Source of the DNA: an uncultured Bacteroidales bacterium
Lineage (GTDB): Bacteria > Bacteroidota > Bacteroidia > Bacteroidales > Dysgonomonadaceae
DNA length: 48,569 bases
Reading direction: 5' to 3'
NCBI GenBank assembly: GCA_964293155.1
Contig: CAXYYA010000028.1
Location: 1 to 48,569 of the forward strand
Shown here one piece after another: positions 9,311 through 48,026 of the stretch (its first letter is position 1; each line of letters begins with the position of its first letter). Position numbers and translations under genes: made by a program. The notes under the pieces were generated by a model. The model did not search any database, was not told where the DNA came from, and saw only the letters and a list, made by a program, of their open reading frames with translations.

Positions 9311-9490
9311 CGGGAACATCATTTTAAAATTAACGTGAGTTCAATACAAGAAAAGGCTCTTAATTGATTTATAATAAGGTAATAAGGTCTTTGTTCTATT
9401 TTAATTTAACTCTACTAAGGTTGCTTTTAAAAAATAAGGTTTCCAATACGCTTTGAACCCTGCCTACCGCAGGCAAGCTTATTTACAAAT

Positions 9491-9839
9491 ATGATTATCC
9501 GCATAATGTCCTACATCAATTGCCACGTCCCTTTACAGGCTGTGTAAAAAACATCGCAACAGTATCAATTTGTCATTCCGACGATAGGAGGAATCTTATT
9601 TGTCATAAATTATAGACTCTTCACTCCGCAAAGCTGCGTTCAGAGTGACAAAAAGACACCTAATTTTCATTTTTACACAGCCTCTTTAGGGCGTGGTTTT
9701 TGAGATACAGAGCAGATAGGCTTTAGCCGAAATTTATACTATTATTGGGCTGAAGCCCGTAATTCTTAGACATTATTATCCCACGACTTAAAAATCGTGG
9801 CAATAGATAAAGCCGTTAGGACACTTTGCGGATAATCAT
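9491..9839 (+). mobile_element. MITE-like element, family A, copy 1 (interrupted by a family B insertion)
   Basis: About 23-bp terminal inverted repeats: ATGATTATCCGCATAATGTCCTA ... TAGGACACTTTGCGGATAATCAT. Internal CCACG...CGTGG hairpins and GGCTTTAGCC / GGGCTGAAGCCC arms. About 95 percent identical to the uninterrupted copy at 46228..46420, which is reverse-complemented. Confidence 0.75.
9536..9684 (+). mobile_element. MITE-like element, family B, copy 1, inserted inside family A
   Basis: 149 bp with TIRs CAGGCTGTGTAAAAA ... TTTTTACACAGCCTC. Flanked by duplicated TTTA (9532..9535 and 9685..9688). The empty site CCCTTTAGGG is visible in copy 46228..46420. A second copy lies at 23143..23292. 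Confidence 0.8.
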
Positions 9840-17703: not shown

Positions 17704-17744
17704 AGGGAAAAGGTCTGTACAACATTTGTTATAAAATTATTTTT

Positions 17745-17960
17745 ATGATTATCCGCAAAGTGTCCTAATATCAATTGCCACGGCTTTCAAGCCGTGGAAG
17801 GTATGAATTTAATTAAATTGGCTTTAGCCGAAATTTATGTAAACTTCCCGATTGCGGAATAAGTTGGGCTAAAGCCCATCTCATAGATACATCTAATTAT
17901 CCACGCCATAAATGGCGTGGCAATTGACACGGTTAATTAGGAAGGTTTGCGGATAATCAT
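17745..17960 (+). mobile_element. MITE-like element, family A, copy 2
   Basis: Same TIRs (ATGATTATCCGCAAAGTGTCCTAA ... TTTGCGGATAATCAT). Same architecture with perfect 9-bp hairpins CCACGGCTT-TC-AAGCCGTGG and CCACGCCAT-AA-ATGGCGTGG. Confidence 0.7.
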
Positions 17961-23057: not shown

Positions 23058-23329
23058 TTTATCCGCAATGTTTCGAGGCTGAGAATTTTCAGTAGTCATG
23101 GCTAAAGCCGGTGTTCACGTTTGCTGGGTTCTCCGCTTTAAACAGGCTGTGTAAGAAACATCGCAACAGTATCATTTTGTCATTCCGACGATAGGAGGAA
23201 TCTTTATTTGTCATAAATTATAAACTCTTCACTCCGCAAAGCTGCGTTCAGAGTGACAAAAAGACACCTAATTTTCATTTTTACACAGCCTCTAAAAGCA
23301 GGGTTATTAAGACGTATTGCGGATAATCA
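23058..23329. mobile_element. Degenerate family-A-like shell carrying a family B insertion
   Basis: Ends TTATCCGCAAT ... ATTGCGGATAA form an 11-12 bp inverted repeat matching the core of the family A TIR. The interior has a GGCTAAAGCC motif. Confidence 0.45.
23143..23292 (+). mobile_element. MITE-like element, family B, copy 2
   Basis: 150 bp with four differences from copy 1 (9536..9684). Flanked by TAAA on both sides (23139..23142 and 23293..23296). Confidence 0.8.
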
Positions 23330-23455
23330 AAAAAATGACTATTTTTGTGAACGGGAAAAACATTTGTAAATGCCCATTAATTTGGTTGATTATTAAATCG
23401 CATAAATGAAGATGTTGGCAACGATTTGTAAATGTAAACTACAAAAATTTGGTAA

Positions 23456-36077: not shown

Positions 36078-36108
36078 GAAAAAATGGGGAGCGAATCCCC
36101 ATTTTTTT
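36078..36108 (-). terminator. Bidirectional intrinsic terminator after the Gly/Arg repeat protein gene
   Basis: ATGGGGA-GCGAA-TCCCCAT flanked by A7 and T7, 16 nt after stop codon 36124. Confidence 0.8.
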
Positions 36109-36123
36109 GTGGTTGGTGCGTGG

Positions 36124-36687
36124 TTATTTTGTGGTTTCCCTACGGTCGCAAATACCGTTTTTATTGGCGTCCACAAAATTTACCGCACTGCCTTTTCCAT
36201 TCCGAAGGCCGGTGCCTTTCCCTGTACCGCGTCCCTGGCGCGGTGTTCCGTTTTCGAAGTTGTCACAAATGCCGTCTTTGTCGGCATCTACGAAATTTGC
36301 TCCACCACCTCTGCCGTTACGCAGTCCGTTGCCATAGCCTTGTCCGCGTCCTCCACGGGGAGTTCCGTTTTCGAAATTGTCGCACACGCCATCTTTATCG
36401 GCATCCACAAAGAAGCGTCCTTGTCCTCTGCCGTTGCGTAATCCCTGGCCTTTGCCTTGTCCGCGGCCGCTACCGTCGAGCAGTCGTTGTTTGCCGTTGG
36501 CATTCGGATTTCCGGGTGTTCCGTTCTCGAAATTATCGCAAACGCCGTTGTTGTTTTTGTCCACAAATGCAGGTCCGGTTTGAGCGGTTTTCGCCGTTTC
36601 CTTTGCTGCCTGATTTTGATTTTGGGCGGTTGCTAATCCTATGGTGGCAACCAGCGCCATTGCAGTGATAAATACTTTTGTTTTCAT
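36124..36687 (-). CDS. Secreted repeat protein with four FVDxDKDG(V/I)CDNFENGTP modules separated by Gly/Arg-rich linkers
   Basis: 187 aa with a signal peptide ending ATAQ. The modules carry a DxDxDG calcium-loop-like motif and one Cys each. Linkers are of the type GRGQGYGNGLRNGRGGG. Repeats 2 and 3 are 39 aa each. Confidence 0.7.
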   Translation of the reverse strand: MKTKVFITAMALVATIGLATAQNQNQAAKETAKTAQTGPAFVDKNNNGVCDNFENGTPGNPNANGKQRLLDGSGRGQGKGQGLRNGRGQGRFFVDADKDGVCDNFENGTPRGGRGQGYGNGLRNGRGGGANFVDADKDGICDNFENGTPRQGRGTGKGTGLRNGKGSAVNFVDANKNGICDRRETTK

Positions 36688-43844: not shown

Positions 43845-44831
43845 TTACAATTTCGATAAAACCTCTTCTGATAATTTAAGGGAAGGCTTTGACTTTTTTG
43901 CCGACACCGCAAGCACTTCGCACGCGAGGTGTTCTCCCGGCCTCATTTTCCGGAGATAAAGCCTCACGGTATCTATTTTTTTGCCATAGATACTTTCGGT
44001 TATCTCCAGCGAACACCGGTACTTGTCTTGCAGCAGGTAAGCTTTGCCGTTGTATTCATCGGCAATGACGGTTATATCTACAACCGTGTTTACGAGGGCG
44101 GCAAGTTGCTCCCGCTCTTCCTGCGACAGATCGGGTTCGGCTTCCTCACGTGGTTTGCGCCTGTTGAAACATCTTGGCGAGACATATTGCGTGCTGTCCG
44201 TGGTATTACGAATACCGTCAACGGCAACGGGAACGACTTCCGCGGCAGTTTCTCGAAATTCAAGGGTCTGTTTCTTTTCTGAAAACGCCAGAAAACGCAC
44301 TTGCCCGGCTTTCATGTTGGCAATGGTAGCTTTTCCTTTCAGGTTTTCCGCCGGAATAAAACCGTGCACTGATCCGCATTTCCATCCGAAATGAAGCCCC
44401 AGCTCTACGTGCACGCCTTTAGATGATGTTTGCAGGATGATCCCCTTGTATATGCTGCCCGGTTTCAGGTCGGGCACACAGGCTCTGTTCACCACTGCGT
44501 CCACAAGAACGAAATTCCGTTGCGGAAAGGCTTCATATACCGAGCCGAGGAAAGAGTGCATCACCAGATAGGGCGCAGCGTTGTGCCACCACTCCATATT
44601 GGGGTACGACCATGCCATGTGGCCATACGATACGAAACCGGAAATTTTTTCAACGCGTATGTTGAATCCTTTTTTGTTAAACGACCTTATCTCGAAAGGG
44701 AAAATTTCACCCGATGCTTCAGCCACGAGCATCCGGTTAAACTTGTCTTCTTCGGGCTCGTCTTTCTGTTTCCAGAAATCGTTGCGCTCTGACGGGCGAA
44801 ACCATCGCGCCAATATATCAATTATTTTCAT
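43845..44831 (-). CDS. Hypothetical protein with S1/OB-fold-like segments
   Basis: 328 aa. GEIFPFEIRSFNKKGFNIRVEKISGFV and GSIYKGIILQTSSKGVHVELG...GFIPAENL resemble S1 RNA-binding domain strands. No other motif recognised. Confidence 0.4.
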   Translation of the reverse strand: MKIIDILARWFRPSERNDFWKQKDEPEEDKFNRMLVAEASGEIFPFEIRSFNKKGFNIRVEKISGFVSYGHMAWSYPNMEWWHNAAPYLVMHSFLGSVYEAFPQRNFVLVDAVVNRACVPDLKPGSIYKGIILQTSSKGVHVELGLHFGWKCGSVHGFIPAENLKGKATIANMKAGQVRFLAFSEKKQTLEFRETAAEVVPVAVDGIRNTTDSTQYVSPRCFNRRKPREEAEPDLSQEEREQLAALVNTVVDITVIADEYNGKAYLLQDKYRCSLEITESIYGKKIDTVRLYLRKMRPGEHLACEVLAVSAKKSKPSLKLSEEVLSKL

Positions 44832-44952: not shown

Positions 44953-45702
44953 TTAAGCGCCCGGCGGCAACGGAATATCGGGTTCGCTGCTTCCCTTACC
45001 GTCTTTTGCTTTGCGTATGGCCAGCATGTTTTTGTAATAGCTGATCAATTCATTTATCTTCCCAATGATGTTTTGGTACACTTCCGCATCGCCCACCAGC
45101 GAAAGGCCGTTTATGGCGGTTACAATTTTTTTGTAAGCTTCATCAACTGCTCCGCGGGTTTTGGAAACGTTGCCGCTACCGCGGGAGGCCTGCTCGTCGT
45201 TGCGCGAACCGAATCGGGTGATGAAATCGTCGTTGGCTTCTTTTAATTTGGTAACCAGCGTTGTTTGTTCGGTAACGGCAAGGTCACCGGCATAATTGGT
45301 TATAAGTTGATCTACGAGGCTGGTAAGGGCTTTACTTTCCTCCGGATAGGGGTCGCGGCTCACGTATCCCACCTGATCTACGATGCGCCGGATGTTATCG
45401 GCGGCGGCGCGCACATCGGGGTCAAACCAATTGATCTTGGCATTAAGATCGTTAATGAAAGCGCTGTAAATCTCGTCGCGATACTCATCGGCGGCAGCGA
45501 TGCCTGAGGTCAGGCGGCTGCCCGATTCCACGTTAATGGTGTTGATTTCGGTTTGTAGCGCTTTCACATAGGCAGGGTAGATTTTGATAATACCCAGTTT
45601 TTCGGCAGTTTCTTCCTCTATATATTTTTTCACCAAGTCGTGAAATTGTGCATGTTCTTTGTCACGGTAGCGTGAGAGGTCAAATCGTTGAATCTGTTCC
45701 AT
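44953..45702 (-). CDS. Hypothetical all-helical protein
   Basis: 249 aa with no signal peptide and no motif I recognise. The ORF is clean, with a near-consensus -7 box (TAaaTTgG, 45709..45716) just upstream. Confidence 0.5.
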   Translation of the reverse strand: MEQIQRFDLSRYRDKEHAQFHDLVKKYIEEETAEKLGIIKIYPAYVKALQTEINTINVESGSRLTSGIAAADEYRDEIYSAFINDLNAKINWFDPDVRAAADNIRRIVDQVGYVSRDPYPEESKALTSLVDQLITNYAGDLAVTEQTTLVTKLKEANDDFITRFGSRNDEQASRGSGNVSKTRGAVDEAYKKIVTAINGLSLVGDAEVYQNIIGKINELISYYKNMLAIRKAKDGKGSSEPDIPLPPGA

Positions 45703-45724
45703 TGTATTCCAATTTAGTTAAAAA

Positions 45725-46112
45725 TTTATTCAGCGGCAGCATTGCCGGTAACAATAAAGAGCATCAGCTCTTTCTTTAGTGCGATGCTGCGGGATGCTTT
45801 CGGGTTGCCCCGAAGAGGCGCCGCATGACCGCAGACTGCATTGTAACTTCCCGATATCGTGCCGCAATCGTGCGGCTGTCTTTCGTACATTCCCGATGGT
45901 TCCCCGCACGCGTGCGGGAACATTTCTGGGCGCCCCCAAAGTGGGCCGCCCGCCTGCGGGAAGGGTTCGTTAATTCCCCCAAACATGCTGCAAAGCTGTG
46001 GCTTAATTTCGGGGTTTTACGGATGCGGCCGCACTGTTTTTCTCCTTTCTTCTGCCGCATGCCCTACGTTAATCCGCGTTTGCAGCCCGGTTCCGGGCAT
46101 CTAAAGATCGCT
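45725..46112 (-). ncRNA. Candidate large (~390 nt) structured RNA of unassigned family
   Basis: GC-rich island open in several frames on both strands. At least nine short GC helices, for example 45799..45814, 45861..45876, 45903..45918, 45928..45951, 46023-29/46054-60 and 46085..46098. 5'/3' closing complementarity GCGAT/ATCGC. Two 3' hairpins (45756..45773, 45734..45747) followed by a T-run on the minus strand. A promoter box lies at 46119..46126. Confidence 0.4.
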
Positions 46113-46118
46113 TATGCG

Positions 46119-46150
46119 CAAATATATATGTTAAAAACGTCATTTGCAAG
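46119..46150 (-). promoter_or_regulatory. Candidate primary-sigma promoter for the GC-rich RNA (-33 cTTG, 20 nt spacer, -7 TAtaTTTG)
   Basis: The minus strand reads CTTG-CAAATGACGTTTTTAACATA-TATATTTG, directly upstream of the GC island. Confidence 0.4.
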
Positions 46151-46227
46151 TAAATTAACAGATAATATTTTATGTTTTAGAGCAGGTTTTTTGGGAAAAA
46201 TGATAAGGTTAACCATCAATTTTTCAC

Positions 46228-46420
46228 ATTATCCGCGAAGTGTTCTAACGGCTTTATCCATTGCCACGACTTTTAAGTCGTGGGATAATGATGTCTAAGA
46301 ATTACGGGCTTTAGCCCAATAATAGTATAAATTTCGGCTAAAGCCTATCTGCTCTGTATCTCAAAAACCACGCCCTAAAGGGACGTGGCAATTGATGTAG
46401 GACATTATACGGATAATCAT
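46228..46420 (-). mobile_element. MITE-like element, family A, copy 3 (uninterrupted, reverse orientation)
   Basis: Its reverse complement aligns end to end with 9491..9839 minus the family B insert. It shows the empty target site CCCTTTAGGG. Confidence 0.75.
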
Positions 46421-46523
46421 ATTAAATTATTATTCATGTCATTTCCTCTTTATGCCCAATTTTGGGTGGGGACGTGACAAGATGAAACTGTTCTTGCTCT
46501 TTTGATACTGCCTCTTTTATTGT

Positions 46524-48026
46524 TTATTTTTCAATCGTATTCTTTTTGGGCGCGTTTACCGGAGATTCCTTTTCAATAGGAATAGTTTCTGTTGTTTCTT
46601 TGCCTTTCAGGTAATTGGGCAACTGCATTCCCGCCATATTGAACAAGTCGTCCAATGGTGGAATGGTTCGCATTAACCCCGAAAGAAAGTTCGCGGTAGA
46701 GCCTTTACCATCTGCATTATTTCCCGAATCCCAAACGGTAACTTTATCAATTTTCAGGTTTTTAACCGCTTCAACCTGTGTTCTGATGAGTTCCGGTAAT
46801 TTCTCGATCATCAGCAACTGATACGCTTTATCGGGATCGCCGCCGGCGGCCGAAACCACATCTTTGTACCCTTGCGCCTGCTTGCTCAGAATCTCGAACA
46901 AACCGCGCGCTTCGGCGTCCATTTTGGCGAAGATGGCATCGGCATCGCCTTTAGCTTGAACGCGAGTGCGTTCGGCCACGGCTTGTGCGTCAATAATGGC
47001 TTTTTGTTTGGCGATCTCGGCCGGAACCACAATGTTGGCGGTTTCGGTAGAACGTTCGCGTTCGGCGCGGGCATTTTCGGCCAACTTTTCAGCCACATAA
47101 GCTTCTTCCAGCGCTTTTGCCTGTTGCACTTTCTCGGCCGCGATAGCCAGACGCGCAGCCTCGGCTTCTTTTTCGCGACGTGCCGCATCGGATTGGGCGA
47201 TGGTAATTTTTGCCGTATTTTCACCCTGAACGGCTATGGAGTTTGCTTCGGATGTTTTGATACGCGTTAGTTTATCGGCTTCGGCCTTTCCGATCAATTC
47301 GTCTTTCTTAGCCGATGCAATATTTACCTCGCGGTCTTTATCGGCCTCAGCTTTACCGGTCTCACCGATCTTTTCTTGTTGTGCCACGCTGATTTTGGCT
47401 TCGTTTATGGCCTTTGCTGCGGCTTCTTTTCCCAACGCTTCAATGTATCCCGACTCGTCTTTGATATCGGTAACGTTCACGTTGATCAATTTCAGACCGA
47501 CTTTCTTCAATTCCGAATCCACTGTTTTGGAGATGGCTTCAAGGAATTTATCGCGGTCGGAGTTGATTTCTTCGATCGTCATGGTGGCGATCACCAAACG
47601 CAGTTGTCCGAAGAGAATGTCGGAAGCCAGTTCTTTTATTTTATCGGGTGTAAGCCCCAACAACCTTTCGGCGGCCGTGTTCATCAGATCGGGTTCGGAC
47701 GAAATGGCAATGGTAAACCGTGAGGGTACATCCACGCGAATATTCTGACGGCTGAGCGCGTTGGTGAGGTTGGCCTCGATGGACAATGGCTTCAGATCGA
47801 GGTAAGCGTAGTCCTGAATTACCGGCCACACAAAAGCGCCTCCGCCAGGAATACAACGAGCCGAGGAGCCGCCTGTTTTTCCGTAAACCACCAGAATTTT
47901 ATCGGAAGGACATCTTTTAAAACGCGATGCCAGCGCCAGAATAGTAACAAAAATAACTACCGCCAGTATGATGATCAGGAACAATGGCGATGAAAGCGTC
48001 TCCGTCGGTAATCGCATCCAGTTCAC
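46524..48026 (-). CDS. Flotillin-family SPFH/band-7 protein (YqiK-like)
   Basis: 500 aa. N-terminal TM helix, then SRFKRCPSDKILVVYGK, an SPFH domain and an Ala/Glu-rich coiled coil (EAEAARLAIAAEKVQQAKALEEA). The start may be GTG 48026 or ATG 48017. Confidence 0.9.
   Translation of the reverse strand: MNWMRLPTETLSSPLFLIIILAVVIFVTILALASRFKRCPSDKILVVYGKTGGSSARCIPGGGAFVWPVIQDYAYLDLKPLSIEANLTNALSRQNIRVDVPSRFTIAISSEPDLMNTAAERLLGLTPDKIKELASDILFGQLRLVIATMTIEEINSDRDKFLEAISKTVDSELKKVGLKLINVNVTDIKDESGYIEALGKEAAAKAINEAKISVAQQEKIGETGKAEADKDREVNIASAKKDELIGKAEADKLTRIKTSEANSIAVQGENTAKITIAQSDAARREKEAEAARLAIAAEKVQQAKALEEAYVAEKLAENARAERERSTETANIVVPAEIAKQKAIIDAQAVAERTRVQAKGDADAIFAKMDAEARGLFEILSKQAQGYKDVVSAAGGDPDKAYQLLMIEKLPELIRTQVEAVKNLKIDKVTVWDSGNNADGKGSTANFLSGLMRTIPPLDDLFNMAGMQLPNYLKGKETTETIPIEKESPVNAPKKNTIEK

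Follow-up and report, generated by a model that had tools for sequence, protein, structure and literature searches.

Tandem arrays of hairpin units with a period of about 42 nt upstream of DUF6261 genes in Bacteroidota

Repeated RNA modules set at a regular spacing can offer many equivalent sites to an RNA-binding protein, as they do in the CsrB and RsmZ sponges and in the TRAP-binding trp leader. In type III toxin-antitoxin loci the repeats are 36 nt (toxIN), 45 nt (cptIN) or 37 nt (tenpIN) long. Three families of such loci have been described, all with ToxN-like toxins and with a terminator before the toxin gene, and a Rho-independent terminator between repeats and toxin gene serves as a criterion for the type (Blower et al., 2012, as restated in PMC12283969). 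The element described here is laid out much as type III loci are, with a promoter, tandem direct repeats of a fixed, family-specific length (41–43 nt) and then one protein gene, all in the same order on one strand. As in type III loci, too, members of one protein family share a repeat length, each locus and lineage has a repeat sequence of its own, and the two-part cassette occurs in varied contexts, including a CTnDOT-like conjugative element. The points on which it departs from them are taken up below.

The window analysed here is a 48.5-kb stretch of a contig from an uncultured bacterium of the Dysgonomonadaceae. An 820-nt intergenic gap between two of its minus-strand genes, one encoding a Band_7/flotillin protein and the other a DUF6261 protein, holds an island in which GC content rises abruptly to 0.59–0.62 (positions 45780–46110), against 0.44 for the window and 0.33–0.41 for the flanks. 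The original prediction had pictured this island as a single multi-helix RNA domain of ~390 nt. We agree that the segment is non-coding, structured, evolutionarily conserved and outside the described RNA classes, but find a modular array instead of a single domain: on the minus strand, and so in the sense orientation of the flanking genes, five degenerate tandem 42-nt hairpin units and a short leader lie upstream of the DUF6261 gene (Table 1), an anatomy in which we have high confidence. The individual helices listed in the prediction, and a 16-nt palindrome (45903–45918), are all there; the closing of a domain by GCGAT and ATCGC, on the other hand, has no comparative support. The folding energy is only marginally better than that of shuffled sequences, by about two standard deviations whichever strand is folded (z = -2.15 for the minus strand, -2.36 for the plus strand), so that the impression of many helices is weak evidence when taken alone.

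Table 1. Features of the island and its neighbourhood in the window.
Feature	Position	Strand	Basis or remark
Band_7/flotillin gene	46524–48026	minus	borders the island gap on the side away from DUF6261
CTTG, possible -33-like element	46147–46150	minus	20 nt upstream of -7 box; consensus resemblance only
Bacteroidetes-type -7 box TATATTTG (TAnnTTTG)	46119–46126	minus	sequence; predicted transcript start near 46112
Leader hairpin 1, GCCCGG-AA-CCGGGC	46085–46098	minus	sequence; also in MFE fold; without comparative support
Leader hairpin 2, stem ATGCGGC/GCCGCAT, 24-nt loop with GAAAGGAGAAAAA (46049–46037)	46023–46060	minus	sequence
Array unit 1, 42 nt, GCAGCATGTTTGGGGGAATTAACGAACCCTTCCCGCAGGCGG	45950–45991	minus	degenerate in window; better hairpin in sister contig L001
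Array unit 2, 42 nt, GCGGCCCACTTTGGGGGCGCCCAGAAATGTTCCCGCACGCGT	45908–45949	minus	R1 match 45904–45959 (minus), 32.6 bits
Array unit 3, 42 nt, GCGGGGAACCATCGGGAATGTACGAAAGACAGCCGCACGATT	45866–45907	minus	register from sequence; R1
Array unit 4, 41 nt, GCGGCACGATATCGGGAAGTTACAATGCAGTCTGCGGTCAT	45825–45865	minus	register from sequence; R1
Array unit 5, 42 nt, GCGGCGCCTCTTCGGGGCAACCCGAAAGCATCCCGCAGCATC	45783–45824	minus	best preserved; hairpin TTCGGG-GCAA-CCCGAA; R1 match 45779–45834 (minus), 35.7 bits
Hairpin AAAGAGC-TGAT-GCTCTTT, then ATTGTT	45756–45773	minus	directly after unit 5; sequence
Hairpin CGGCA-ATGC-TGCCG (45747–45734), then CTGAATAAA and TTTTT (45724–45720)	45720–45747	minus	sequence
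DUF6261 gene, 249 aa	44953–45702	minus	Pfam PF19775, E 2.4e-30; start codon 45702
S1-like gene, 328 aa	43845–44831	minus	downstream; weak Pfam S1 match, E 5.7e-5

The repeat is most readily seen by autocorrelation. Self-match reaches 0.494 at lag 42, the best of lags 20–80, a value attained by none of 500 dinucleotide shuffles (mean maximum 0.364, standard deviation 0.015). Each unit begins with GCGG and ends with YCCCGC, after which comes a 6-nt linker, and the palindrome CCCGCACGCGTGCGGG is simply the junction of units 2 and 3 (45918–45903). The recurrence of TTCCCGAT at 45848 and 45890 had been noticed at the outset, while the 42-nt tandem organisation behind it had been overlooked: one period of a tandem array separates the two copies, hence their distance of exactly 42 nt. 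TRF called no array in the window, nor in the related locus L016; units that are less than 70% alike escape it, and autocorrelation is needed for such arrays. A covariance model built from array units (R1) matched only 45779–45959 in the whole window, which, the window units being part of its seed, speaks for specificity within the window rather than for independent detection.

Both strands carry ORFs that overlap the island, six in all with a length of 40 aa or more, and, as had been proposed, none is protein-like. Translated searches (tblastn) matched related loci on both strands and in several registers and revealed no conserved peptide, which rules out reading the ORFs as small proteins. 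A coding tandem repeat was also rejected, since periods of 41 and 43 nt in relatives rule out a shared reading frame, translated matches fall on both strands, and in the window the DUF6261 ATG is preceded, at a distance of 18 nt, by an in-frame stop. The absence of any known RNA class was likewise borne out: the Rfam 15 covariance models gave no match at gathering score in the whole window (RNase P, tmRNA, 6S, SRP, riboswitches and ToxI included) and, at E ≤ 10, only two chance-level matches in 45400–46600, neither inside the array, while ARAGORN found neither tRNA nor tmRNA. Across 20 related loci Rfam returned a single tRNA and no family for the array. The orphan Bacteroidetes 5'-UTR motifs in Rfam are comparable in being conserved non-coding leader elements of one gene family recognised by comparative analysis only; unlike them, the element described here matches no family in the window or in these 20 loci and conserves its period and fold rather than its sequence.

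Neither a repeat search nor R1 with filters off found other copies of the array in the 48.5-kb window, and a dispersed repeat of the MITE or REP kind was rejected on the grounds of this single copy. A MITE-like element (46228–46423) does adjoin the island, but is separate from the array. A CRISPR array was rejected too, as the units are contiguous and have no unique spacers, and no cas-like gene occurs among the neighbours examined.

The TATATTTG box with its CTTG, as well as the two 3' hairpins and TTTTT, are present as originally described. Between the promoter and the array lies a leader of ~120 nt with two hairpins. In Limibacterium a hairpin occupies the position of leader hairpin 2; its stem differs (GCGAT/ATCGC), while the 13-nt loop motif GAAAGGAGAAAAA is identical, a comparison that involves two lineages only. 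The hairpin directly after unit 5, which could be a weak terminator or attenuator judging from its sequence, also has a Limibacterium counterpart at the same position (GCCCTTCAGAGGGT followed by ATTCGTTT). A terminator scan of the minus strand between 45783 and 45703 called nothing, either small hairpin included.

The window can also be compared with a MAG of the same species (GCA_028698105.1). The two sequences differ at 15 positions in 6.6 kb, nine of which fall within 68 nt of units 1–2. All nine of these clustered differences are transversions, and it is the MAG version that has the better hairpins. They could reflect real hypervariability, gene conversion between units or an artefact of repeat assembly.

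Arrays of this kind are widespread. With periods of 41–43 nt and 2–9 units, they occur upstream of DUF6261 in about 63 of 68 regions, drawn from genomes, metagenomes, three long contigs and one Prevotella nigrescens replicon. By autocorrelation the best lag (20–80) was 41–43 in 29 of 33 genome-derived and 30 of 31 metagenome-derived upstream regions, and all four further loci (L085–L087 and P. nigrescens) had arrays. In most loci TRF gave a period of 41, 42 or 43 with 2.9–7.9 copies, the array ending 47–325 nt before the ATG. The exceptions comprise contigs on which too little sequence precedes the gene, one gene that is truncated, two loci whose arrays have only about two units, and an intact DUF6261 gene in Draconibacterium (L041) that has no array. 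Copy number among loci ranges from 0 to 9. Carriers include Limibacterium, Paludibacter, Prolixibacter, Maribellus, Gaoshiqia, Sunxiuqinia, Tenuifilaceae, Prevotellaceae, Prevotella, Tannerella and Dysgonomonadaceae as well as metagenomes, and among them protein identity to the window DUF6261 is as low as 21%. The consensus units of different lineages are unrelated in sequence; their period and position are constant, and both are retained at 21–27% protein identity despite this complete turnover. Taken together, these arrays are a previously undescribed, widely distributed class of upstream elements.

The flanking genes vary from locus to locus; the conserved module is therefore the array plus DUF6261, the only gene inherited with the array across lineages. 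We have high confidence in this association, for which all loci were collected by way of the DUF6261 protein, the searches from the array side covering the 48.5-kb window and viral contigs. The check proposed at the outset, whether homologues always adjoin both the 249-aa and the S1-like genes, thus comes out positive for the first gene, with the same proviso that the loci were collected through the protein, and negative for the second: an S1-like homologue follows DUF6261 only in Limibacterium (33% identity), and elsewhere the place is taken by unrelated or convergent genes. The S1-like gene was accordingly rejected as a general partner. Detection of the family depended on the query, as a genome scan with a single protein found no homologues and an alignment query found them. 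The viral contigs held no DUF6261 relatives, and five exact unit-motif matches in them were isolated chance matches without arrays.

These distributions bear on the simplest alternative, that the array has no function. It would then have arisen as a neutral minisatellite, by decay of a GC-rich gene or as a coding repeat of 14 residues, and would lie upstream of DUF6261 by chance. Such an origin would fit the degeneracy of the window units (49% self-match), the calling of an 86-aa ORF on the array and the variation in copy number. However, the retention of period and position while the sequence was fully replaced argues strongly against it, as do double changes that preserve pairing, the single copy in the window, and the combination of 41- and 43-nt periods with both-strand tblastn matches, which excludes a conserved peptide. 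We regard this explanation as highly improbable.

For the pairing itself, 82 distinct units of the Paludibacter type, to which the window units can be aligned, were aligned without gaps. A hairpin about a fixed axis (columns i + j = 57, 15 pairs) leaves 76.9% or 74.1% of cells paired, and this drops to 28–50% when partners are slid by 1–3 columns. The covariation score was 0.31–0.35 versus 0.18–0.20 in shuffles, none of 500 of which reached it, and four apical pairs switch freely among GC, CG, UA and AU with many double changes. Two folds fit the units equally well. On the one hand, each unit can form one long imperfect hairpin, with an AGTTTT-type linker between units. On the other hand, it can form two short hairpins, one variable and one linking it to a neighbouring unit; in the window this pattern is represented by CCCGCA-CGCG-TGCGGG and GCCGCA-CGAT-TGCGGC. 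In many arrays the first unit has an inverted copy of the linker at its start, giving a perfect hairpin of ~26 bp, and other lineages have different two-hairpin units of unchanged total length. Because period and fold are conserved and sequence is not, no one covariance model can cover the entire class.

The arrangement of promoter-like sequences suggests how the arrays may be transcribed. An exact sense-strand TAnnTTTG stands 39–227 nt before the array in 28 of 47 related loci. In the 280 nt that precede the arrays, 30 boxes of this exact form lie on the sense strand and 9 on the antisense strand; from the array to the ATG the numbers are 2 and 8. About one-third of the loci have no more than ~60 nt between the end of the array and the ATG, and four of these have no more than 22 nt; in L086 the -7 box is ~25 nt before an array that ends just upstream of the ATG. 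Terminator-like sites between array and ATG were found in only three of 50 loci. Since the boxes lie upstream of the arrays and the arrays lie close to the ATG, the arrays should form the 5' portion of the DUF6261 transcript.

The original prediction had favoured a separate transcript over a leader. Such an independent RNA, of ~350 nt, would run from the TATATTTG box to the hairpins before 45720 and act in trans, with DUF6261 under a promoter of its own. In the window this would account for the two hairpins and T run between array and gene and for a weak TAnnTT-type box near the ATG, and in Limibacterium for the terminator-like hairpin that follows the array and for an exact copy of TATTTTTG, 32 nt upstream of the DUF6261 ATG. 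The box that had been assigned to the downstream gene (TAAATTGG, its end 8 nt from the ATG) does not have the consensus, and the window hairpins were not called as terminators. Family-wide, the scarcity of terminators, the position of consensus boxes upstream of the arrays instead of between array and gene, and the short distance from many arrays to the ATG all count against a separate transcript, and strict linkage to one gene family is better explained by a cis element. As a general account it seems quite improbable; in the window and the Limibacterium lineage a separate short transcript is possible, given the weak post-array hairpin and the weak box near the gene.

Our tentative preference, plausible rather than probable, is that the island is a transcribed 5' leader of tandem hairpins that acts as a multivalent protein-binding platform for the DUF6261 gene. 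Transcription would start at the Bacteroidetes-type promoter (-7 box 46126–46119), and the transcript would comprise the ~120-nt leader and then the five units (45991–45783). Each unit could form a single imperfect hairpin, whose basal GCGG/CCGC stem leads through an internal mismatch to a variable stem-loop at the apex, or alternatively the two short hairpins described above, one of them bridging neighbours. The array RNA would then present about one site per 42 nt to a protein that controls or partners the downstream gene, for which DUF6261, as the only co-inherited protein, is the candidate. Regularly spaced short modules could serve an oligomeric RNA-binding protein much as in CsrB/RsmZ and the TRAP-bound trp leader. 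Unlike those, the arrays have, judging from sequence, no GGA- or GAG-type loop motif, their units are true tandem duplications with an exact period, and they are tied in cis to a single gene family whose product is a candidate partner only.

A leader that acts as RNA has to be weighed against an element that acts as DNA, in which the units would be 42-bp imperfect palindromes bound as duplex by a dimeric or oligomeric protein and phased every four helical turns, and would serve the DUF6261 operon as an operator, a roadblock or an array of the centromere kind. A unit of 42 bp is indeed 4 × 10.5 bp, and the units are symmetric about one axis. Furthermore, the usual signature of one-strand RNA pairing, an excess of G:T over A:C, does not emerge from the counts, which were 108 versus 120 overall and 14 versus 18 in the apical stem for defined stems, 58 versus 43 in the periodic hairpins of 26 arrays, and 59 versus 52 in a first version of the test, with no significant bias in either direction in any of the three versions. 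Within one array the apical stems are mostly identical and between arrays they differ, as co-evolution of a protein with its site predicts, so the double changes between lineages could equally reflect palindromic DNA sites evolving with their protein. Direct repeats at close to whole-helical-turn spacing, upstream of an operon whose product could bind them, are also found in centromere-like and iteron arrays.

Other observations fit this less well. The arrays do not overlap the promoter; they lie 39–227 nt downstream of the -7 box, right next to the region of the start codon, and periods of 41 or 43 would be expected to rotate sites off one face of the helix over as many as 7–9 units; 41-nt units in up to ~9 copies (7.5 by TRF) would not keep to one face. 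The ~26-bp hairpin of the first unit suits a folded strand and not duplex sites. No DNA-binding domain was detected in DUF6261, and no regulator is conserved beside it. Unlike centromere-like and iteron arrays, moreover, the DUF6261 loci have no ParA, ParM or Rep gene, and their arrays lie downstream of a predicted promoter, consist of long imperfect palindromes and occupy varied chromosomal locations. We therefore think a DNA-level element unlikely, if far from negligible, and consider action at the RNA level fairly probable and the likelier of the two.

We found no literature on the DUF6261 family, whose members are acidic (pI 5–6.5) and 230–320 aa long. The AF2 model of the 249-aa window protein is all-alpha, with two stacked helical bundles (pLDDT 90), and that of a 316-aa relative has two stacked bundles plus a C-terminal beta domain (pLDDT 91.5). 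DUF6261 proteins resemble generic or sensor-type helical bundles and not known RNA binders; there is nothing nuclease-toxin-like about them, and no positive sign of nucleic-acid binding. PADLOC, NCBIfam, PHROGs and PDB sequences gave no match above noise. HEPN motifs have the spacing Rx4-6H, and a HEPN-like reading of R13-x3-H17 in DUF6261 was rejected, as both spacing and position are unlike that motif and the fold lends no support. In the long forms the C-terminal beta domain is of adhesin type and also makes up the repeats of giant proteins, the largest of 7,646 residues; this repeat swamped an exhaustive profile search, which gave no family size. At several loci the gene after DUF6261 encodes a large protein; two of these proteins have surface-type domains (Choice_anch_L; DUF5018/LRR_5), and the remainder have no Pfam match.

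The resemblance to type III toxin-antitoxin loci stops at two of their defining features, the terminator and the protein. If DUF6261 loci worked as ToxI/ToxN do, the repeat RNA would be processed into 42-nt units, each neutralising one DUF6261 'toxin' subunit. To the shared layout noted at the outset can be added the weak hairpin and T-rich tail after the last unit in the window and in Limibacterium. However, 47 of 50 loci lack a Rho-independent terminator ahead of the gene, and the window scan called none either. The acidic, all-helical bundle is not a ToxN-fold endoribonuclease, and neither Pfam, NCBIfam nor PADLOC links DUF6261 to ToxN, AbiQ, CptN or TenpN. The units are plain hairpins rather than pseudoknot-forming repeats, and a leader of 39–227 nt precedes them. 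The intact array-less homologue L041 is a mild argument against obligate toxicity, and neither the adhesin-type domain of the long forms nor the large downstream proteins, with surface-type domains in two loci, are toxin-like. Given that the terminator is absent in most loci and the protein fold is unrelated, we do not file the array and DUF6261 as a type III system, and a toxin-antitoxin-like module appears improbable. A bolder idea, which we would call doubtful, is that of a new Bacteroidota repeat-RNA/protein module with a fold unrelated to the three type III families: the array would be cut into ~42-nt hairpin RNAs, one bound to each DUF6261 subunit, and the activity of DUF6261 would be governed through this ribonucleoprotein, perhaps in defence, in addiction or in assembling the large downstream proteins.

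Regardless of mechanism, the arrays provide a first handle on DUF6261, a family that extends across several Bacteroidota families and includes members in the human oral bacterium P. nigrescens and in a conjugative transposon. They are also unusual among conserved non-coding elements: unit length, the arrangement of copies and the fold persist although the sequence is replaced, and for this reason sequence-based searches for RNA families miss them. Should the repeats bind DUF6261, they would constitute a new repeat-RNA/protein system of an interest comparable to that of type III toxin-antitoxin loci, and the existence of several cultured carriers makes the question directly testable. These are Limibacterium fermenti me31 (NZ_CP159486.1, ~1.154–1.160 Mb), Prolixibacter bellariivorans ATCC BAA-1284, Sunxiuqinia elliptica and P. 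nigrescens FDAARGOS_1486 (NZ_CP082843.1, ~416.3–416.6 kb).

Finally, gene callers mis-annotate the array as protein. In MAG GCA_028698105.1 they place the 86-aa ORF on it, and in P. nigrescens the RefSeq CDS start is extended into the array.

Across the 6.6 kb compared, the window and L001, the contig of a sister MAG of the same species, show 15 differences, nine of which are concentrated in array units 1-2 (45927-45994). All nine of these clustered differences are transversions, and the hairpins are better in L001 than in the window. The cluster could reflect an artefact of assembly, conversion between sequences or genuine hypervariability.

A leader hairpin carries a 13-nt purine-rich loop, GAAAGGAGAAAAA, that is identical in the window (46037-46049) and in the Limibacterium locus L011 (~2503-2515), while its stem differs between the two. 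The loop may serve as a recognition site that is conserved and single-stranded. At the array start of another DUF6261 locus, L022 (~2206-2265), there is an inverted copy of the linker that separates successive units (GCAAAACTGC versus GCAGTTTTGC), and such a copy is also found at the first units of L030, L050, L051, L075, L078 and L084. Because these arrays open with the inverted copy, their first unit is able to fold into a near-perfect hairpin of ~26 bp, a possible processing site.

Arrays with 41-nt units were found at two further loci. One, on contig L086 (JGI Ga0315757_1000731), belongs to a DUF6261 cassette lying within a CTnDOT-like conjugative element that encodes TraQ, TraJ, TraG, Toprim and a phage lysozyme; here the gap from promoter box to array is only ~25 nt. 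The other, in Prevotella nigrescens, precedes a gene annotated in RefSeq as 'DUF6261 family protein' (WP_004367630.1), whose annotated CDS start falls within the array; the true ATG is likely 138 nt downstream of that start. A second repeat (120 nt x 3.3) occurs just upstream of this array, within an annotated hypothetical CDS.

Coordinates of the Prevotella nigrescens array and of two features near the DUF6261 gene of the window
Feature	Location	Strand	Remarks
328-aa protein gene	window 43845-44831	minus	weak S1-domain match
MITE-like repeat	window 46228-46423		adjoins GC-rich array region; repeat search
41-nt array, ~4-5 units	L093 3708-3977 = NZ_CP082843.1 ~416.29-416.56 kb		Prevotella nigrescens

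The 249-aa DUF6261 protein of the window is without the C-terminal beta domain of long forms (e.g. P0014, residues ~240-316), a domain that is also the repeat module of giant proteins containing 10-66 copies and reaching 7,646 aa. For the 328-aa protein, family searches gave no assignment beyond the S1-domain match; Limibacterium alone keeps a homologue (33% identity) in the position after DUF6261.

The MITE-like element beside the array has terminal inverted repeats (TAGGACA...GCGGATAATCAT) and further copies in the window at 9488-9836 (inverted orientation, 96-98% identity), 17739-17960 and 23142-23336. Within the element, at a point 565 nt before the ATG of DUF6261, four publicly available contigs from the same species come to an end. 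A separate 117-nt tandem repeat of about three copies (65-80% identity) lies at 36145-36473, within overlapping ORFs (36084-36687).
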